Source: Promethearchaeota archaeon
GTDB lineage: Archaea > Asgardarchaeota > Lokiarchaeia > Sigyniarchaeales > SOKP01
Reading direction: 5' to 3'
Assembly (NCBI GenBank): GCA_019057795.1
Contig: JAHLWS010000078.1
Location: 138,857 to 202,856, forward strand
Length of the DNA: 64,000 nt
Every line of letters begins with the position of its first letter. Position 1 is the first letter of the stretch. Of this stretch, positions 29,819-38,518 are shown piece by piece. The notes beneath the pieces were generated by a model. The model had not been told where the DNA came from and did no database searches. It was given only the letters and a program-made list of their open reading frames with translations. Both the position numbers and the translations under genes were made by a program.

Positions 29819-30211
29819 TTAAATAACATGTAATGCTTGGTTTAAAATATCTAAATTTTTAACAAATTCTTCCTTAAATAGATGATAATACGTAAATTTT
29901 TGTTTTTTATATCCTTGTATTAATCCTGCTACTACAAGCTTTCTTAAATGATGAGATATTGTCGATTGGGACTTATCTAATATAGTTTCTAATTCGCATA
30001 CACATCTATCTTGTTCTTTTAAAGCGTTAATAATGATCAACCTTTCTTTAGACGCTAAAGCCAATGTGAATTTCTCAATCGCATCAAATGTTTTATTTTC
30101 TTCTAATTCTTTCCCAAATTTTAGCAAATTATTAAAGAAACCATTTGAGTTAGAGCATTCTTTACAAGCACATAGCATTATCTTAATTTCTGATTCGCGT
30201 TTTTCTTTCAT
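29819..30211 (-). CDS. arsR: ArsR/SmtB transcriptional repressor
   Basis: RLIII..L...DRCVCELE...SQSTISHHL..L; divergent from acr3. Confidence 0.9.
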   Translation of the reverse strand: MKEKRESEIKIMLCACKECSNSNGFFNNLLKFGKELEENKTFDAIEKFTLALASKERLIIINALKEQDRCVCELETILDKSQSTISHHLRKLVVAGLIQGYKKQKFTYYHLFKEEFVKNLDILNQALHVI

Positions 30212-30264: not shown

Positions 30265-30330
30265 TAAATCGATAAATATAAATCTATAACATTTTAAGGT
30301 TTCTTTACGCTCAAATCGACAACCTTAAAT
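30265..30330. promoter_or_regulatory. arsR/acr3 divergent promoter with putative ArsR operator; duplicated at 34826-34891
   Basis: Imperfect palindrome ATCGATAAATATAAATCTAT; 24-bp and 20-bp blocks recur identically 4561 bp downstream. Confidence 0.7.
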
Positions 30331-30387
30331 TTGAAGTACAACTTTTATCAAATAATAATTATTCAATCTTAAAGGAATTAAGTAAAA

Positions 30388-31474
30388 ATGAAATCAGAAG
30401 AACCAAAAGAAGAATCAAAAAAAATTAGTTATTTTGAAAAACTTCTTCCGTTATGGGTCGCATTATGTATAATAGCGGGCATTATTCTTTCTCAGCTCAT
30501 CCCTGAAATAAGCGAAGCTATTAATTCTTTACAAATAGGAGGAATTTCTATTCCCATTGGAATCTGCTTATTCCTGATGATGTATCCCGCTATGTTGAAT
30601 CTTCAATTTTCTGAGTTGAAAAAATTAGGTAAAAACCCAAAACCAATTATATTAACGCTTATATCTAATTGGGTCGTTGCTCCTTTCGTAGGGTTAGCAA
30701 TGGCAAACATTTTTTTACCTGGATATGAACAGTTAATAGTTGCAATCATTCTTCTAAGTTCAAGCCCATGTACTGCTATGGTCCTAATCTGGGGCTGGAT
30801 GGCAAGAGGGAATCAAGAACAAAATGTAATTAATACTAGTTTAAATACGATAACTATCATAATCGGTTATGTCCCTTTAGTCGCATTATTAACAGGCATT
30901 AAAAATATTCCTATAGATATCTTTCTTTTGTTGATTTCTTTGGTGTTTTTTATAGGAGTACCATTATTATTGGGTATAGTTAGTAAAAAAATTATTATTT
31001 CAATAAAAGGAGATGCTTGGTTTAACGATGTCTATAGACCAATTGTAGGAAAAGTTTCGATTGTAGCACTATTAACGACTTTAATTGTTCTTTTTTCCCT
31101 AAATGGAACTGTCTTGATAAATAATCCTGATCTGTTGCTCTTAATTTCTATACCTCTTTTAGTGGGATTTGTAATTGTTGTTAGTTTTAATATATTAATT
31201 ACAAAACTCTTTAAGTTGAGATATGAGGAAGCTGTTATTACGGTTATAATAGGGTCTTCAAGTCATTTTGAAATAGCTATTGCTACTGCGATTGCTATGT
31301 ATGGGATTGGCTCTATTGCGGCATTAGGAACTACCATGGGACTATACGATTCTTAGTTTTACTATGAACGGGTCATTCTGGGAAGTTCCTGTGATGCTAT
31401 CGATTGTATATTTGGGAGGATACTTAGGAAAACGAGGATTTTGGGAGAGTTCAAAGAGTAGGATTGAGAAATAA
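30388..31474 (+). CDS. acr3: Acr3 arsenite efflux transporter, join(30388..31345,31377..31474), 351 aa if spliced
   Basis: MMYP, NWVVAPF, SPCTAMV, SSHFEIAIA; conserved C-terminal EVPVML helix lies beyond a 31-nt insertion containing a stop. Confidence 0.9.
31346..31376 (+). other. putative bulge-helix-bulge (EndA-type) intron in acr3 mRNA
   Basis: 4-bp helix GACT(31340-43)/GGTC(31371-74), 3-nt bulges ATA and ATT, inner hairpin, outer stem AGGAACT/AGTTCCT; canonical cuts give GGA CTA TTC TGG GAA. Confidence 0.85.
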
Positions 31475-31556: not shown

Positions 31557-34115
31557 TTAGATAAATCTTATTATATCACCAAAAGTTTGCCTTAGCTTGT
31601 CGATTTGTTTCAGATCTCTCCAATTACATTTAGGAAGTTTTCTAAGACGATAATTATTCACTTTAAATAATTTCCTTACTTGTTGCTCAAACTCAGAATG
31701 TATGAATTCTACGTAGTTATCTCGTCTTATTGTATGATCTACAATAATATAAATATCAATATATCCACTATTTTTTAGATTTTGTTTAAAATTATCACTA
31801 GATTTTAAATGTTTATAATCGTTGGCATGGGATCCATTTCTAGGAGTTCTATGCCTGAATCTATCAACATATTCTTCTAGTGAAAAATGCTCGCGATCCC
31901 AATATTCCCCTGCAACGCTTAGAGTAAATACATCTTTTCCAATTTTTATATCGACATAAGCAAAAGCATCAAAATGCATGTGTCTATATCTCCGTAATGA
32001 TTTATAATCGCTAGGCAAAATATCAACAACCTGATCAAAAGGAAGAACTTCATATAATGAAGTTGGCCTTTCACCAAAATTCTTATGAAATAATCTTGAA
32101 AGTAAATAGCGCATTATCCTTTCATTCGTTATTTTACCTCCCGAACATATATCACATGATTTTAGATCTAAACTATAATCATCAGGTTTAGATTTAAATT
32201 TAAAACTTGGATGATACTTACAAGACCATAGAAAAACTTCTCTGGTTGGCTGTTTTAACTTCTCAATATGACTCAACGGGGTTTCCAGATTAAAATTAAA
32301 TTTATCACCCCGAGCAATTATTTGTTGGCTCGTTAATCTATGACTTTCATTATAACATTCAGCACACCAATTATTATAAGATCTAATACGTTCCATGCTA
32401 ATGCTAAATTCTCCATGTTTATTACAAATAAATGGGAACAGTATTTCTGAGACCTTTTGTTGTATATTGCGCGGTTTCTTTAATTCTTGATTTATTCGAG
32501 TTTTAAATTCAGTTTTAGTAAATTTAAATCTTGCATTTCTTAATTCCGCTTCTTTAACAAAATCTTGATATGAATGGGACTTTTCAATTCTTGAACATAG
32601 AGGACATTTAGCGCGATATAAATGTTTGTAAGCAACATTAAATTTTTCATGGTTGGAACATTTACAAGAAAGTTCAAATAATAAGTTTTCTATTAGAGTT
32701 CCTGTCAGCACAGTTTCTAAATATTCAAATATTTTCGTCTCCATATTAAGTCCTAAAGTATTGATTCTACTACAATAGGAATTCCATTTCTCAATTAAGC
32801 TAAAAACACGCTTTTCAGCACAAATTAATTTGTAATCAAGTATTAAATTAAAAAAAACAGTATAATTGCTTGGAAATTCTTGTTTCAGATTAAAAAACCA
32901 ATTATCTAAAACTTTTTCATCTATTAAGGAGTTAGGTCTCTTAAATTTATTAGATTTCAAAGTAGCGAAAGCTAAAGCTTCAGAACCATTAGATGTACCA
33001 TATAATTTCTCGGCAATTCTATTATCTGGTAAATCTTCTTGATATAATTTTATTTGTTTCACTAAATTTACAAGAAAATCTTTCGATATGGAACTACTAT
33101 TCTTTATATTTGGAAATTGATTCTTAATAAATTCCTTATAATGCTCTAAAGCTAAAACTTCGATTTTTTTGATTTTTCTTGGTCGATTTTCATTGGTTTG
33201 CTTCATGGAATCAAAACCTTCTTTTTCTTTTGGTTTACAATTTTCTAAATCCACAAATCTTTTTATAAGTTTAATCACATCAGATTTAGTAAATTTCGGA
33301 GTTAGCCCATTAGTATAAAATTCATGATATGCAGAAAATCTATCAAAAGCAGTTACCTTTGATTTCTTAATTTCTTTATTTTCAGGATTTAATCCGAGAA
33401 GGGATCTACACGTACCAATGTTTAGGATTTTATCATAATTACTCTTGATTTCTTTTAAAGTCAGTTCGGTTTTATTTTCTAACGATTTTATTACCTCAAT
33501 GCCCTTTATTATTTCTTTTTGCCATTCTTTCAAGAAATTTCGAAGGTTTTTAGAAAGCGGTTTAAGATTTTCATACTCAGAAAAGATTTTCGAATGAACT
33601 CGAAGGTGCTTAAGTATCCTCTTATATTGGATGGTTATTTCATCCATTCCATGTCTAATTGCCTTATTCACGAGATTTGGTTTAGAACTTTCTCCTTTTT
33701 TTAGTGCTTTAATCTGTTTTTTAGTCAATTGCTTGAGATATGTATTCGAAACCGAGTCCATGTAATATGAAACTATAGGAGCTCCCCTTCCTATTATGAT
33801 ACAATATACCCATCCCTCTATGAACGGGGTAGTTTCATGGGGGAATCTTGATTTTACACCCTCAATTAATTCTTGTGGAGGAAGTCCTGCTTTATCAAAC
33901 AAGCATGCTAACGCAGCATCCACGAAATCACCAATCCTTTCATTAACATAGACTAAAGGAATGTGATGTTTCTTACATTTAGGATACTTCCCAAAACCAA
34001 AAAATCTTAATTTAAGAGGTTTAACTCTAGTCATGAACTCACACCCAAAATTTGGACAGATTGCGACTCGATCTTCTCTCACTGTTTTTCGTGATACATT
34101 GGTGTATGCTTTCAT
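31557..34115 (-). CDS. cassette ORF B: conserved 280-aa N-domain + three zinc-ribbon repeats + PD-(D/E)XK/Vsr-like nuclease domain
   Basis: CSNH...CPLC, CNKH...CAEC, CKYH...CDIC; NERIMRYLL...HFDAF...AGEYW..EH. Confidence 0.8.
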   Translation of the reverse strand: MKAYTNVSRKTVREDRVAICPNFGCEFMTRVKPLKLRFFGFGKYPKCKKHHIPLVYVNERIGDFVDAALACLFDKAGLPPQELIEGVKSRFPHETTPFIEGWVYCIIIGRGAPIVSYYMDSVSNTYLKQLTKKQIKALKKGESSKPNLVNKAIRHGMDEITIQYKRILKHLRVHSKIFSEYENLKPLSKNLRNFLKEWQKEIIKGIEVIKSLENKTELTLKEIKSNYDKILNIGTCRSLLGLNPENKEIKKSKVTAFDRFSAYHEFYTNGLTPKFTKSDVIKLIKRFVDLENCKPKEKEGFDSMKQTNENRPRKIKKIEVLALEHYKEFIKNQFPNIKNSSSISKDFLVNLVKQIKLYQEDLPDNRIAEKLYGTSNGSEALAFATLKSNKFKRPNSLIDEKVLDNWFFNLKQEFPSNYTVFFNLILDYKLICAEKRVFSLIEKWNSYCSRINTLGLNMETKIFEYLETVLTGTLIENLLFELSCKCSNHEKFNVAYKHLYRAKCPLCSRIEKSHSYQDFVKEAELRNARFKFTKTEFKTRINQELKKPRNIQQKVSEILFPFICNKHGEFSISMERIRSYNNWCAECYNESHRLTSQQIIARGDKFNFNLETPLSHIEKLKQPTREVFLWSCKYHPSFKFKSKPDDYSLDLKSCDICSGGKITNERIMRYLLSRLFHKNFGERPTSLYEVLPFDQVVDILPSDYKSLRRYRHMHFDAFAYVDIKIGKDVFTLSVAGEYWDREHFSLEEYVDRFRHRTPRNGSHANDYKHLKSSDNFKQNLKNSGYIDIYIIVDHTIRRDNYVEFIHSEFEQQVRKLFKVNNYRLRKLPKCNWRDLKQIDKLRQTFGDIIRFI

Positions 34116-34720
34116 GAAGTCAATCTCTCCTCGAGTTGTTTTTTTGGATTTCTTATCTTTACTCTTGGTGCTTTTTCTAATAGACTCTCTAATTCTCCTT
34201 CTAAACTATGGTAGTTTATTCTAAGTTCCTCATAAAACTCGCTGAATTGTATATGTAAGCACTTTTTCACTAAACATATGTTTTTTGCCAATACAACTAC
34301 GAATTTGAGTAAGCTTAGATGATCATGAATGTTCTCATCCGAAAAATAGTGAATTAAAATGGATATTTTTTCTGTTATTTCTGAAAGTCTGATTATGGGT
34401 GTTCTATTATTGTTAAAAAATAGAGATCGTATCCCTTCCTCAAGAGTTTGAGTGCTGTTTTTTAATTTCTTAAGCATTGTTATGAATTCATGGGTTAATG
34501 TTTCTAATTCTTGCTTTCGACTGAAAAATTTATTGTTTCTATAATTTTCAGCAAGATGGGGATTGGTCCAAAATCGATATCTTATCACTTCCATCCTATA
34601 ATTAAAAAAAGTTCGGAGTTGACGTGAAAGTTCTTTTATTTTTCTTACACCCTCAATCTCATACCAATCATTAAAAATTTCTTCATAATCAGTTTCAAAA
34701 TCTTCCATATACTCTGTCAT
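34112..34720 (-). CDS. cassette ORF A
   Basis: Paralogue of 15399-16013 and 48692-49303; ATGA overlap with ORF B. Confidence 0.85.
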   Translation of the reverse strand: MTEYMEDFETDYEEIFNDWYEIEGVRKIKELSRQLRTFFNYRMEVIRYRFWTNPHLAENYRNNKFFSRKQELETLTHEFITMLKKLKNSTQTLEEGIRSLFFNNNRTPIIRLSEITEKISILIHYFSDENIHDHLSLLKFVVVLAKNICLVKKCLHIQFSEFYEELRINYHSLEGELESLLEKAPRVKIRNPKKQLEERLTS

Positions 34721-34825: not shown

Positions 34826-34891
34826 TAAATCGATAAATATAAATCTATAGCATTTTAAACTGTGATGTAGGTCAAATCGACAACCTTAAAT
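34826..34891. repeat. second copy of the arsR/acr3 promoter-operator
   Basis: TAAATCGATAAATATAAATCTATA (34826-49 = 30265-88) and TCAAATCGACAACCTTAAAT (34872-91 = 30311-30). Confidence 0.9.
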
Positions 34892-34947
34892 GTGAAATAT
34901 TATACTATATATTGAACCATCATAATATGAAGAGTTAATTCAAAAAT

Positions 34948-35028
34948 TTGATTGAAGTACCTGTGATGTTATCCATAGTTTACTTAGGAAGATATCTTAA
35001 AAAGCGAGGATTTTGGAAATCCAATTGA
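34948..35028 (+). pseudogene. orphan diverged 3' end of acr3
   Basis: LIEVPVMLSIVYLGRYLKKRGFWKSN* vs exon 2 FWEVPVMLSIVYLGGYLGKRGFWES; 19/21 aa identical, 10 synonymous codon differences. Confidence 0.9.
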
Positions 35029-35049: not shown

Positions 35050-36753
35050 TTGAATAAAAGAAATACTGTAATAGGTCTGAAAATAATGGCTGTAGCTTTT
35101 ATGCGTAAATTAGAGGAAGAACCAGAGACTTACGATTCGAAGTTTACTTCACTTACGAAAGGGGTGAATGTCAATGTTCATAGCTGGGTATTGGATCAAA
35201 TTCAATCAGATCAATCAATTTTAGAAATTGGGTCTGGGACGGGTTCATTAGCTTCAAAAATGGTTTCAAAAGGAAATATTGTTGTTGCAATTGATAATAA
35301 CATTCAAATGATTAATTATGCTAAGCAGAAATACTCAGATACTTTAAAAAATGGTACGCTGTTGTATCGATTAGGTTCATTTACGGATTTACCCGTTGAA
35401 AAGAGATCGTTAGATTTAATTGTCAGCACATTTCTATTATCAGAACTTCGCCCGTTAGAGCAACAAATATTTCTTAGAAACGCCTGGAAAGCGTTAAAAC
35501 CAAATGGTCGCTTGATAATAGCCGCAGAGTTTGTTCCATCAGGGTTTTGGAAGGTCAATTTTAAAATAAAAAGGTGGTGGTTCAAAAAAAAACTGCGTCG
35601 TCTTCGTTTAAAAAGTACCTTTTTAGTTAAATGGTTTTTCAATTATATTGAACCATTAGGTTTTAAGATCGGATACCAAAAGAAGTGGAAGCACGGTTCA
35701 ATTCAAGCAATTGAATTACTTAAAATTAACGATAACGGAGAAGACGAACCCGATTATTATCGTCCTAAAACAAAGAAGTTTAAAGGACTAGTTTCGCAAT
35801 TAAGAATTTATCGATGTCTTTTTACCGGACAGATAGATAGAGTTCCAATAGAACCTGGAATATATAAATCTGGTAATCCCAATCCCAACTCTCCTATTAT
35901 CGTAACGGCTAATTATGAGTATACTTATATAAAATTAATGCGTGATTTACAAAGTATTGATGCGTGGGTTTTATGTTTGGATTCTAATGGAATTAACGTA
36001 TGGTGCGCTGCTCGAGGAGATGATTTTGGCAATAAGCAATTACTAGAAGCCATTGAAGCAACAGATATTCGAGTAGTTTCAGAGAAAAAGACCTTAATTC
36101 TCCCCCAACTTTCAGCAGGAGGGGTTGCTATACCTCAATTACCAGAAAAATTTCCTTTCAAAGTAAAATACGGTCCTGTTTGGTCAAAAGATTTAAAACA
36201 ATTTTTATCCGAGCGACCAGTCCGAAAACCAGATTCTATGAAACTTGCCAAATTTACACTGTCTCATCGTATTCGGGCTGGAATCACACATACTACGTTT
36301 TTATTCCGAAAAATCTTTTTAATTCCGATAATTGCAATATTACTCTCGATTATCGCCTTGAATAACGTCACTATCTTATGGTGGCTTGGAGAATTAGTAA
36401 TATGGATCGTTCTCTCAAATGCAATAATATCAATCTTCTTTCCACTCTCTAAATTTACTCGTAAATTTATTACTAAAGCTGTATTTTTTGGATGTTTTAG
36501 CATATTTTTCATAGGGGCAATTTCTTGGATATTTCATAGTTCATATCTATATTTACTCTTGAACTTTGCTATATATTTCTGGATAACATTCTTTTCTACG
36601 ATGTCTTTTAGCGGTTATACGATGTCAACCAGTCCGAAAGACATTCAAGCAGAATATCCTGTTTTTAGAAAAATAAATCTTACTCTAATAATTTTAGTTG
36701 TAATTCTATTAGGAATAAATATAATATTTTTTATGTTAAATATAATAAATTAA
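35050..36753 (+). CDS. hgcA: class I SAM methyltransferase fused to HgcA-like corrinoid membrane protein
   Basis: ILEIGSGTG SAM motif; PGIYKSGNP..NSPIIVTANY, GINVWCAARG cap helix, LILPQLSAGGV, YGPV, C-terminal TM helices with FSGYTMSTS; likely start ATG 35086. Confidence 0.8.
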   Translation: MNKRNTVIGLKIMAVAFMRKLEEEPETYDSKFTSLTKGVNVNVHSWVLDQIQSDQSILEIGSGTGSLASKMVSKGNIVVAIDNNIQMINYAKQKYSDTLKNGTLLYRLGSFTDLPVEKRSLDLIVSTFLLSELRPLEQQIFLRNAWKALKPNGRLIIAAEFVPSGFWKVNFKIKRWWFKKKLRRLRLKSTFLVKWFFNYIEPLGFKIGYQKKWKHGSIQAIELLKINDNGEDEPDYYRPKTKKFKGLVSQLRIYRCLFTGQIDRVPIEPGIYKSGNPNPNSPIIVTANYEYTYIKLMRDLQSIDAWVLCLDSNGINVWCAARGDDFGNKQLLEAIEATDIRVVSEKKTLILPQLSAGGVAIPQLPEKFPFKVKYGPVWSKDLKQFLSERPVRKPDSMKLAKFTLSHRIRAGITHTTFLFRKIFLIPIIAILLSIIALNNVTILWWLGELVIWIVLSNAIISIFFPLSKFTRKFITKAVFFGCFSIFFIGAISWIFHSSYLYLLLNFAIYFWITFFSTMSFSGYTMSTSPKDIQAEYPVFRKINLTLIILVVILLGINIIFFMLNIIN

Positions 36754-36771
36754 AAAAAAATCATAAATCTG

Positions 36772-37107
36772 ATGAAAATGACAGAATCAAATCAAAATTC
36801 ATGTTGTAGTGACGGTACTGATACGGTACAAAATATCTTAAATGTTCTTGATATTAGAATTCTTATTAACGAACCATTATGTACTGGTTGTGGGTTATGT
36901 GGCGAAATATGCCCTTTTGGTTTACCTAAACCAAGTGATAATGGAAAATATGAAATAAAAAATCCAGAACTCTGTACTGAATGTAGTGCTTGTCAAAGAA
37001 ATTGTCCTACTCATGCTATTATTATGCGAGAGCATGTAGGTTGCGGATGTTTATGGGACGCGCGACAACGAGTAAAAAGCAAAGGAAACAGTTGTAATTG
37101 TTCATAA
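36772..37107 (+). CDS. hgcB: 2[4Fe-4S] ferredoxin, HgcB-like
   Basis: CTGCGLCGEICP and CTECSACQRNCP; extra Cys in VGCGC and terminal SCNCS; directly after hgcA-like gene. Confidence 0.75.
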   Translation: MKMTESNQNSCCSDGTDTVQNILNVLDIRILINEPLCTGCGLCGEICPFGLPKPSDNGKYEIKNPELCTECSACQRNCPTHAIIMREHVGCGCLWDARQRVKSKGNSCNCS

Positions 37108-37138: not shown

Positions 37139-37429
37139 TTGATAAGATCCATGACGCAACAAGACGATAATAAATTAAAAGTAGATATTTATGTTCCTTT
37201 AGACGCATGTGCGTGCATATGGGACGATTTTATGAATCGGATGTTTGAAGTACTTAATCCTTATATAAAAAATATTGACTATAATACAAAAAACTTGAAC
37301 TCCGAAGAAGCTCGCAAATTAAAGCTACATGGAAATTGCGTTGTTGTTAATGGTAAAATAAAATTTACTAGTTCCTACTTACTCAAAGACAAATTACCAA
37401 ATTTACTTAAGGAAAAAGATCTAATGTAG
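37139..37429 (+). CDS. small thioredoxin-like/metallochaperone-like protein
   Basis: VDIYVPLDACAC, CVVVNG. Confidence 0.55.
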   Translation: MIRSMTQQDDNKLKVDIYVPLDACACIWDDFMNRMFEVLNPYIKNIDYNTKNLNSEEARKLKLHGNCVVVNGKIKFTSSYLLKDKLPNLLKEKDLM

Positions 37430-37469: not shown

Positions 37470-37826
37470 ATTAAAAAAATCAATTTTGAAATAAGCATAC
37501 CAACTAAGGGACTACAACAAGGAAAAAAGTATACTGTTTACGTTAAAGATAACGCTTCATTTATCGAAGCCTTAGCGATGGTTGATAAAATAGAGATGGA
37601 AGCACCTAATGAATCTATATTCCCAATAAATGAGGGGTACATTCACAATTATCTACAGCTGTTTGTAAATTTCGAAGATAATTCTATATATGATGATGTA
37701 GGAATTTATGCTTATGGCCCTGATGAAAATGGAATTATGCGTAGATTTAACCCAATTCGAGAAAACATAGAATTTAACTTGTATGACGATAGTGTAATCC
37801 AACTACAACCAGACGTTGGGTGTTGA
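37470..37826 (+). CDS. hypothetical protein, possibly beta-grasp/ubiquitin-like, ending in Gly-Cys
   Basis: Frame open upstream of track ATG (37578) to an ATT at 37470, 9 nt after GGAGGT; ends LYDDSVIQLQPDVGC*. Confidence 0.55.
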   Translation: MKKINFEISIPTKGLQQGKKYTVYVKDNASFIEALAMVDKIEMEAPNESIFPINEGYIHNYLQLFVNFEDNSIYDDVGIYAYGPDENGIMRRFNPIRENIEFNLYDDSVIQLQPDVGC

Positions 37827-38062: not shown

Positions 38063-38518
38063 GTGAAGAAGAGAGATGATGTAAGTTTGGATAAAACTAA
38101 ATTAATTGTTCTTTGTACGGGAAATTCAGCACGCAGTCAAATGGCAGAAGCTTTTTTAAGAAGATATGCGAGCAAGCGTTTTGACATCTATAGTGCGGGA
38201 TTTGTGCCTAAAGGAGTTAATCCTTACACAGTTAAAGTTATGGAGGAAATTGGCTATGATATGAGTAGCCATAACTCAAAATCGTTAAATCAATATCTCG
38301 ATAAAATTCATTTTAAAATTGTAATCACAGTCTGTCAAAAAGCGGAAGAAATGTGCCCTATCATTCCCGGTGTGGAAATTAAATTATATTGGCCTTTTGA
38401 AGATCCGGCTTCGTTTGAGGGCACAGAGAATGAAAGACTTATCAAATTCAGAGAAATTCGAGATAAAATGCATGAACACGTTAAATTATGGTTAAAAGAA
38501 AGAGGAATTGTAAATTAA
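38063..38518 (+). CDS. arsC: arsenate reductase (LMW-PTP fold)
   Basis: LCTGNSARSQMAE, VITVC...CP, WPFEDP. Confidence 0.9.
   Translation: MKKRDDVSLDKTKLIVLCTGNSARSQMAEAFLRRYASKRFDIYSAGFVPKGVNPYTVKVMEEIGYDMSSHNSKSLNQYLDKIHFKIVITVCQKAEEMCPIIPGVEIKLYWPFEDPASFEGTENERLIKFREIRDKMHEHVKLWLKERGIVN

Follow-up and report, generated by a model that had tools for sequence, protein, structure and literature searches.

The window, that is the whole stretch of 64,000 nucleotides analyzed here, has about 30% G+C and derives from the 4.95-Mb, 87-contig assembly of a Loki-type Asgard archaeon. Inside an arsenic operon it harbors a gene that joins a class I S-adenosylmethionine (SAM) methyltransferase domain to a corrinoid and membrane protein resembling HgcA, followed by a separate gene for an HgcB-like ferredoxin. 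Judged from sequence and predicted structure, this fusion is almost certainly a CpaM-linked paralogue of HgcA, and by sequence comparison its gene probably belongs to the HgcA sister group, the "HgcAB-like" proteins. The locus may be an Asgard form of the CpaM/HgcAB-like system that would run a relay from SAM over cobalamin to a thiophilic acceptor under the control of ArsR, a reading that we place a little short of an even chance.

The fusion gene and its product

The open reading frame (ORF) of the fusion spans positions 35050-36753 of the plus strand, translates without stops and is open from a TTG at 35050. Because its homologues, which are 548-555 residues long, align from the methionine encoded at 35086, the start was put at this ATG, and the product probably comprises 555 residues. 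Fusion and ferredoxin are encoded by separate genes that lie 18 nt apart. The following features were assigned.

35086..36753, plus strand: fusion gene of a CpaM-like methyltransferase and an HgcA-like corrinoid/membrane protein (ORF, Pfam, NCBIfam, homologue alignment)
35086..35760, plus strand: N-terminal class I SAM methyltransferase domain of the CpaM family (NF043040 match, invariant columns, fold matches)
35836..36255, plus strand: corrinoid-binding domain, a homologue of the CFeSP gamma (CdhE) C-terminal domain (Pfam CdhD 51.7 bits, PDB matches, shared core residues)
35989..36024, plus strand: cap helix GINVWCAARGDD; the codon at 36004-36006 encodes Cys307, the presumed cobalt ligand
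36259..36750, plus strand: membrane domain with five predicted helices (AlphaFold helices at residues 392-425, 428-451, 461-484, 487-509 and 517-554)
36772..37107, plus strand: HgcB-like 2x[4Fe-4S] ferredoxin carrying GCGCLW and, C-terminally, CxC, directly 3' of the fusion (NF040864, 54 bits)

A first-pass annotation made from the letters alone had described one ORF that joins a class I methyltransferase, an HgcA-like corrinoid domain and a transmembrane region, and the stop-free frame, the Pfam matches and the predicted helices bear this out. Pfam placed Methyltransf_11/25 at residues 57-157 and CdhD at residues 247-356 (51.7 bits). A PDB sequence search with the fusion protein returned the C-terminal corrinoid domain of CFeSP gamma (2h9a/4c1n, E 3e-8) as well as several SAM methyltransferases. 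The structure prediction that the annotation had proposed as a check was run with AlphaFold, the model of the fusion being built from 27 homologues (mean predicted local distance difference test, pLDDT, 75; predicted template modeling score 0.72). In this model a Rossmann-type N-domain is joined to a middle domain of alpha/beta type, and five long helices make up the C-terminal part. The PDB chain that matched it best was the deposited HgcAB model 9a0b (E 1.7e-11); class I methyltransferases came next.

In the alignment of the 27 homologues, SAM motif I (ILEIGSGTG), Asp70, the whole cap helix and many positions of the membrane domain are invariant. The N-domain thus carries the features of a class I SAM-binding protein, with motif I intact, an acidic residue on beta-2 (Asp70) and fold matches to SAM methyltransferases. 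The cap helix reads GINVWCAARGDDFG at 35989-36030, so that its motif is NVWCAARG and not the canonical N(V/I)WCA(A/G)GK, as had been noted before. With respect to architecture the fusion resembles HgcA, combining a CFeSP-type corrinoid domain with a conserved cysteine and a C-terminal membrane domain. The corrinoid core residues G258, G263, P265 and N276 and the PQLxAxG and GP motifs are common to the fusion and true HgcA, and the corrinoid-site residues and the cysteine are kept across the whole superfamily in all groups compared, whereas positions 310-311 (RG vs GK) and several others distinguish the groups.

A word-index search yielded 757 relatives, the best 120 of which were all of the same length and had the same two Pfam parts; where a source was named, it was Promethearchaeota/Lokiarchaeota, Hodarchaeota, Hermodarchaeota or Odinarchaeota. 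With a profile of 27 fusions, matches were found in 210 of 400 Asgard genomes. Counted from the listed E-values, about 150 of the 400 contain a strong, near full-length fusion in a single stop-free frame, among them about 98 of the 135 genomes of the window's own family and members of several other families. An assembly artefact or a chance joining is ruled out by these full-length single-frame matches. Some 548-residue fusions of Hodarchaeales are already labeled CpaM by NCBI.

Relation to HgcA and coupling to CpaM

The annotation had called the corrinoid part HgcA and had proposed scoring against hidden Markov models (HMMs) and a phylogenetic tree as checks. Both were carried out. The kinship stood, as the fusion probably falls into the sister group of HgcA, while the label HgcA proved too strong. 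On the NCBIfam models the fusion scored 177 bits for HgcAB_like (NF043039, cut-off 285) and 174.5 bits for HgcA (NF040863, cut-off 275; 176 bits in the genome search). The HgcAB_like score rose to 210.6 bits, still against a cut-off of 285, when the sequence was read through the TAA stop into the ferredoxin gene. The N-domain matched CpaM (NF043040) with 137 bits over positions 3-212 of 216 (cut-off 180; 140 bits in the genome search), and it missed the ArsM cut-off of 263 bits (NF008823) with a score of 40.4. A Heimdall-type orthologue (L062) reached 222 bits on the CpaM model and so passes its cut-off of 180, and its HgcAB_like score was higher than its HgcA score.

An exhaustive HMMER search with the C-terminal 332 residues gave 973 clusters (50% identity, E up to 0.001), of which the best 150 were sorted by cap helix and architecture. 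Among these 150, three kinds were found: true HgcA with WCAAGKG, about 330-400 residues long, without a methyltransferase domain and 29-36% identical to the query; methyltransferase-fused proteins of about 550 residues with WCAARG or WCAAGGG; and proteins with a C-terminal ferredoxin (hereafter A-B proteins) whose cap helices lack GK. RG stands in place of GK in all 27 homologues of the fusion, and the true HgcA representatives have WCAAGKG.

A tree was calculated with IQ-TREE (LG+C20, quick search) from 92 rows and 307 columns, with the corrinoid domains of five Asgard CdhE proteins as root. True HgcA with WCAAGKG, represented by 31 rows, formed one clade (Shimodaira-Hasegawa-like approximate likelihood ratio test, SH-aLRT, 98) with the query outside, and all proteins of the methyltransferase-A, A-B and methyltransferase-A-B types lay on the other side (SH-aLRT 88). 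The A-B proteins were a clade (96) that excludes the query, which fell into a Loki-type methyltransferase-A lineage (99). The Asgard methyltransferase-A proteins made up four well-supported lineages whose branching order was not resolved. This tree agrees with a published one, calculated after removal of the first 327 alignment columns, in which Asgard sequences fell into the "fused hgcAB" subtree (Lin et al. 2023, PMC10083202). True HgcA identity was rejected on three grounds, the score below the cut-off (174.5 vs 275), the RG cap helix and the position outside the HgcA clade.

That the divergent pair is nevertheless a functional mercury methylase, in which the fused methyltransferase would only speed up a SAM-dependent loading that true HgcAB does alone, seems to us very unlikely. 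In its favor, the fusion retains the NVWCA core, the cysteine ligand and the membrane domain, its HgcB-like partner has terminal cysteines, the HgcAB model 9a0b is the closest structural match, and true hgcAB genes are also often linked to ars genes (PMC7438021). Set against this, the tree keeps the fusion apart from the WCAAGK clade, its HgcA score misses the cut-off, every homologue has RG where the cap helix of true HgcA has GK, and no mer genes were seen near the fusion. Cultured organisms with fused hgcAB, Pyrococcus furiosus and Methanococcoides methylutens, gave no methylmercury (PMC5893877).

The proposal that the N-domain is a built-in loader of methyl groups from SAM to cobalamin gains good comparative support from the wider family. 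A scan with an alignment of six ferredoxin-fused proteins, using one genome per species, produced 80 HgcAB-like loci from Chloroflexota, Thermodesulfobacteriota, Aminicenantes, Spirochaetota, Bathyarchaeia, Hadarchaeota, Promethearchaeota and others, and CpaM-like genes were sought in them with an HMM of the N-domain of the window's family. Directly upstream of the HgcAB-like gene, 69 of the 80 loci carried a CpaM-like gene of about 220 residues (65-103 bits; median gap -3 nt). Four others encoded a triple fusion methyltransferase-A-B of 588-630 residues (Clostridia, Chloroflexia, Desulfobacterales), and in four further loci the methyltransferase was present and masked by overlapping ORF calls. 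The contig ended before the upstream region in three loci, which leaves 77 assessable ones, essentially all with CpaM upstream or fused. The same modules thus occur in three arrangements, methyltransferase / A-B, methyltransferase-A / B as in the window, and methyltransferase-A-B. These arrangements and the presence of CpaM in essentially all assessable loci argue strongly, on comparative grounds, for a methyltransferase that acts on the corrinoid protein or together with it. No methyltransferase was found within 1.5 kb of true HgcA at the two loci looked at (L162 and L169), a number too small for a general statement. In a word-index search with the N-domain only, fragments of the same fusions were returned and no stand-alone CpaM; the stand-alone genes came to light via the HgcAB-like loci.

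A direct contact of the two domains was approached by complex prediction. The methyltransferase domain paired with the corrinoid domain scored 0.59, the best control 0.00, with at least 88% contact agreement between runs and partner pLDDT of at least 77. Solved complexes passed the mark used in 58 of 80 cases and mismatched pairs in 2 of 110; at scores of 0.60 or less only 7 of the 80 solved complexes reached it, as did both passing mismatches, so that the result lends weak support to a contact.

In MetH, an oxidised corrinoid is repaired by SAM together with reduced ferredoxin or flavodoxin. The corrinoid of the fusion could mainly be a reductive or methyl-accepting centre, active in halomethane dehalogenation or in demethylation of methylarsenicals, and the methyltransferase domain would serve MetH-like repair or regulation. 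We regard this as improbable. Repair would not obviously need strict one-to-one coupling and the repeated fusion of CpaM to the corrinoid protein, and no genes of dehalogenase or methyl-acceptor type were seen in the conserved neighborhood. Points that speak for such a centre are the flavin reductase-type genes that flank the module in one Loki genus and the dechlorination of CCl4 by heterologously expressed HgcAB, described in a 2026 preprint (bioRxiv 10.64898/2026.04.26.720869). Taking the comparative evidence together, a SAM-to-cobalamin relay by the fused methyltransferase is rather likely.

Some further observations were made on the wider family. Many Promethearchaeota, at seven loci noted and at others, have a second paralogue in which a separate cpaM is followed by a fused A-B gene of about 363 residues with the cap helix WCGACGDDF and without a cysteine tail; a genome search did not find this paralogue in the window's genome. 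A membrane methyltransferase of PEMT/ICMT type, about 210 residues long, stands beside the cpaM-hgcAB-like module in 10 of the 80 loci and beside one Heimdall-type fusion (for example L062:9813-10439 and L136:341-973). TetR regulators and ABC-2 transporters also recur beside these modules.

The ferredoxin tail and the arsenic setting

The annotation had further pointed to a following gene with two CxxCxxCxxxC motifs and extra terminal cysteines, and the ORF at 36772-37107 encodes just these. The two motifs read CTGCGLCGEIC and CTECSACQRNC; beyond these, the protein has a CC in its N-terminal part, GCGC right behind the cluster domain and CNCS close to its C-terminus. The cysteine pattern is thereby that of HgcB, with two CxxCxxCxxxC motifs, a second motif of CxECxAC type and C-terminal cysteines, while the score of 54.1 bits missed the HgcB cut-off (NF040864, 99 bits). 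A ferredoxin lies directly downstream of the fusion in all 20 related loci. GCGC(L/I/V)W after the cluster domain together with a CC or CxC end occurred in 20 of 21 Asgard ferredoxins, CC being the form in most homologues; the exception (L064) has GCRC and a single C-terminal cysteine. Such a CC or CxC tail was found in none of the 79 ferredoxin tails of fused A-B proteins. ArsR, ArsD and ArsM bind As(III) with paired cysteines, and true HgcB is presumed to pass on Hg(II) through its C-terminal CC. The distribution fits a thiol-rich ferredoxin tail that tracks the arsenic context of the Loki-type form.

As the annotation had stated, the setting is an arsenic operon. The gene order in the window is arsR on the minus strand, acr3, a 3.2-kb minus-strand cassette, the fusion, the ferredoxin, a thioredoxin-fold protein, a protein of about 118 residues and arsC.

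29819..30211, minus strand: arsR, ArsR/SmtB metalloregulator with the motif RCVCEL (NF033788, 67 bits vs cut-off 55; CVC in the translation)
30265..30338: arsR-acr3 intergenic promoter/operator block, original copy (repeat D1, 74 nt)
30388..31356, plus strand: acr3, arsenite efflux gene (TIGR00832, 263.7 bits vs cut-off 282.8; Pfam SBF)
31557-34720, minus strand: two-gene cassette (852 and 202 residues) between acr3 and the fusion, without a Pfam match
34826..34899: second ars promoter/operator block, before the fusion and 3' of the cassette (repeat D1)
37151..37429, plus strand: small thioredoxin-fold protein of 92 residues with an invariant CxC (VPLDACAC) (alignment, AlphaFold, fold matches)
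37470..37826, plus strand: conserved protein of about 118 residues ending in GC, downstream of the thioredoxin-fold gene (alignment, tblastn)
38063..38518, plus strand: arsC, thioredoxin-type arsenate reductase (CTGNSAR P-loop and two further cysteines; TIGR02691, 130 bits vs cut-off 174; Pfam LMWPc)

The CVC of the regulator is of the kind that binds As(III) in R773 ArsR. The two D1 copies (30265-30338 and 34826-34899) are 84% identical over 74 nt and share two blocks exactly, and a second repeat, D2, duplicates the 3' end of acr3 (31382-31444 and 34954-35016). Since the ars promoter block and the acr3 3' end are duplicated around it, the 3.2-kb cassette is best read as having split an older junction of acr3 and the fusion. 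A scan with bacterial-type promoter and terminator models, which are unsuited to an archaeon, gave counts no higher than in shuffled sequence.

Arsenic linkage was then followed across related genomes in two samples, 20 loci with 8-kb flanks, 15 of them Loki-type, and 29 further loci from the window's family. Among the 15 Loki-type loci, eight had acr3 directly upstream with arsR beyond, two had arsR without acr3, and three had a MarR gene and a gene of the flavin mononucleotide (FMN) reductase family. In the sample of 29, 20 loci had acr3 immediately before the fusion, the remaining 9 had arsR at a distance of no more than 1.5 kb, and arsC was found downstream in five. Two closed genomes of the set (L059 and L060, with contigs of 4.32 and 6.04 Mb) have the order arsR, acr3, fusion and hgcB-like gene. 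Altogether, arsR or acr3 adjoins the module in 39 of 44 Loki-type loci from at least eight genera, a count that is a description and not a statistical test, as related genomes are not independent. From the first 20 loci arsC had seemed unique to the window; this was dropped when it was found at the same operon position in five related genomes of the second sample (L025, L031, L032, L033 and L045). According to a published survey of cold seeps, arsC1 and arsC2 are missing from Asgard lineages (PMC10060404).

Whether the acceptor of the methyl group is a metalloid at all has to be weighed on this evidence. The same SAM-to-cobalamin relay could end on a membrane lipid, a small thiol or another metabolite, and the position in the Loki-type ars operon would then reflect lineage-specific co-regulation or an accident of gene order. 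Consistent with this, the cpaM-hgcA-hgcB core occurs in many phyla with varied neighbors and almost never with ars genes, the recurrent neighbors include TetR regulators, ABC-2 transporters and PEMT/ICMT-like membrane methyltransferases, and ArsM co-occurs with the fusion. It is harder to reconcile with the linkage in 39 of 44 loci, which outlasts the loss of acr3, the insertion of arsM and the window's cassette, with paired cysteines gained or kept in the Asgard ferredoxin that are absent from the fused forms outside ars operons, and with ArsR-type regulators flanking one Heimdall-type locus. We consider a non-metalloid acceptor unlikely, if less so than mercury. The earlier proposal that arsenic or another metalloid, rather than mercury, is the substrate held up in so far as the arsR/acr3 linkage, the CVC of ArsR and the thiol-rich ferredoxin tail favor it; the wider family, which is not ars-linked, and the ArsM genes beside the fusion do not. 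A metalloid acceptor is accordingly plausible and more probable than mercury, yet graded well below an even chance.

Other features of these operons are recorded here for completeness. A DUF166 protein (PF02593, about 250 residues) is regular in the Loki-type ars operon, usually between arsR and acr3; it was present in three loci (L052, L056 and L057) and in 10 of the 29 short loci and is absent from the window. In one genus, the module is preceded by an FMN_red-family gene and followed by one or two Flavin_Reduct genes in place of acr3, with ArsR/MarR beyond (nine loci); by NCBIfam this FMN_red gene is not ArsH. The thioredoxin-fold protein has no Pfam match. Its AlphaFold model (pLDDT 86) matches thioredoxins with template modeling scores of about 0.6 and E of about 3e-3, a protein atlas gave Thioredoxin_3 as a lead, and the CxC gene is kept downstream of the hgcB-like gene in several genera. 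Relatives of the protein of about 118 residues start with MKKI at an ATG; in the window an ATT stands at this place (37470) and the first ATG follows 36 codons further in, so that either the ATT would serve as start or the start has been lost. All Loki-type homologues of this protein end in PDVGC.

A candidate relay and its place among known systems

For the relay as a whole we propose the following order of events. The ferredoxin would reduce the protein-bound corrinoid to Co(I), and the fused class I methyltransferase domain would move the methyl group of SAM to Co(I), giving methyl-Co(III) held under the cap helix with Cys307 as lower ligand. From there the methyl group would pass to a thiophilic acceptor, presented at the membrane face by the cysteine pairs of the ferredoxin (GCGC, CC/CxC). 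Because the Loki-type genes sit in an ArsR-controlled arsR-acr3 operon, the most likely acceptor in these archaea would be As(III) in some form or a related metalloid, for example Sb(III). Transfer of a methyl carbanion type from a Cys-ligated corrinoid to thiol-bound As(III) would yield methyl-As(III) without an oxidation step, and the product could leave by diffusion or efflux. Taken in its most specific form, an ArsM-independent methylation of As or Sb in Loki-type archaea, running from SAM over the fused CpaM and the Cys-ligated corrinoid to As(III) on the cysteine pairs of the ferredoxin, this scheme is tentative and by itself unlikely. On the published side, the methyl donor of true HgcAB is SAM (PMC11588087), As(III) can be methylated by methylcobalamin (PMC6950371), and hgcAB of strain ND132 is ArsR-regulated and arsenic-responsive (bioRxiv 10.1101/2022.10.17.512643).

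Several results weigh against this reading. The fusion and the ferredoxin remained below the cut-offs for CpaM (137 vs 180), HgcAB_like (177/211 vs 285) and HgcB (54 vs 99). An SH-aLRT of 88 leaves the grouping of the methyltransferase-A with the A-B proteins short of decisive, and the CdhE rows that root the tree are short and long-branched. In the full-length AlphaFold model the cap helix has a pLDDT below 50 and the geometry between the domains is unreadable. The wider family is not linked to arsenic: 78 of the 80 A-B loci lacked ars genes, the two others having arsR with acr3 in one case and arsC in the other, and the Heimdall-type loci lacked them as well. There a PEMT/ICMT-like protein, Na_Ca_ex and a radical SAM protein are encoded nearby, joined at one locus by an ArsR-type regulator. 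Finally, true ArsM is present in 48 of the 135 genomes of the window's family. In one genome (G170) it lies between acr3 and the fusion (347 bits vs cut-off 263), in another (G145) about 0.9 kb upstream of the fusion on the same contig and strand, and there was no sign in the family that ArsM and the fusion replace each other. A complementary distribution of the two had been considered and was rejected, ArsM occurring in about one third of the fusion-bearing genomes and in a similar or larger share of those without the fusion. The window's own genome has no ArsM (best score 86.7 bits vs cut-off 263).

The closest known relatives are CpaM (NF043040) with HgcAB-like (NF043039), the "fused HgcAB". 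They consist of the same three modules, a methyltransferase, an HgcA-like corrinoid/membrane part and a 2x[4Fe-4S] ferredoxin, and share with the window the non-GK cap helix (WCAA-x-GG/RG) and the strict coupling of methyltransferase and corrinoid protein; in the tree they lie on the same side, with an SH-aLRT of 88. They differ in where the polypeptide is broken (methyltransferase + A-B vs methyltransferase-A + B in the window), in the ferredoxin, which in the window carries GCGC with CC/CxC whereas none of the 79 fused A-B proteins has this tail, and in the setting, as Loki-type genes reside in ars operons and ars genes were found at 2 of 80 fused A-B loci.

HgcA and HgcB (NF040863/NF040864; PMC7305189, PMC11588087) resemble the window's proteins in the CFeSP-derived corrinoid domain, the NVWCA cap helix with its Cys ligand, the C-terminal membrane domain, the adjacent dicluster ferredoxin with C-terminal cysteines and the frequent linkage to arsR/ars genes. 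SAM as ultimate methyl source has been shown for HgcAB and is presumed for the fusion. The differences lie in the identity of 29-36%, the cap helix (GK vs RG), the separate clades, the sub-cut-off scores of the fusion and the methyltransferase domain, which is found in none of the approximately 110 true HgcA representatives listed. ArsM (NF008823) likewise has a class I SAM methyltransferase fold and is encoded in ars operons, and arsenic, its substrate, is a candidate substrate of the fusion; in contrast, ArsM uses no corrinoid, its own cysteines holding the As(III) on which it acts directly, and the N-domain reaches 40 bits vs 263 on its model. The reactivation module of MetH, in which SAM and reduced flavodoxin remethylate cob(II)alamin, is a functional analogy, a methyl group from SAM being given to a protein-bound corrinoid with the help of a low-potential electron carrier; its AdoMet domain, however, is of an unrelated fold, and it has neither a membrane domain nor Cys ligation.

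NCBIfam already lists the pair of CpaM and HgcAB-like, and the clade of "fused HgcAB" has been described in work on mercury. In the literature searched, no use of the name CpaM or "corrinoid protein-associated methyltransferase" was found, and as far as this search goes the strict coupling to CpaM, the methyltransferase-A / B arrangement of Asgard archaea, its thiol-rich ferredoxin and the residence in Loki ars operons appear to be undescribed.

That SAM serves as methyl donor of HgcAB was an unexpected finding of 2024. A sister family of HgcA in which a dedicated SAM methyltransferase is always adjacent or fused therefore offers natural, independent support for SAM-to-cobalamin loading in the superfamily, and it provides a defined domain to delete or mutate. 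Surveys of hgcA-like genes count Asgardarchaeota among the putative mercury methylators (PMC12484752); because a common Asgard fusion gene fails the criteria for HgcA, such calls may overstate the methylation potential of these archaea. With regard to the natural role of HgcA-type proteins, the ArsR-controlled arsenite-efflux operon of the Loki-type form offers a concrete and testable candidate substrate. If the proposed relay is true, an ArsM-independent, cobalamin-based route would suit anoxic sediments, the handling of thiophilic metalloids, and not of mercury, would be the native task of the HgcA superfamily, and the dedicated SAM loader would represent its older state.

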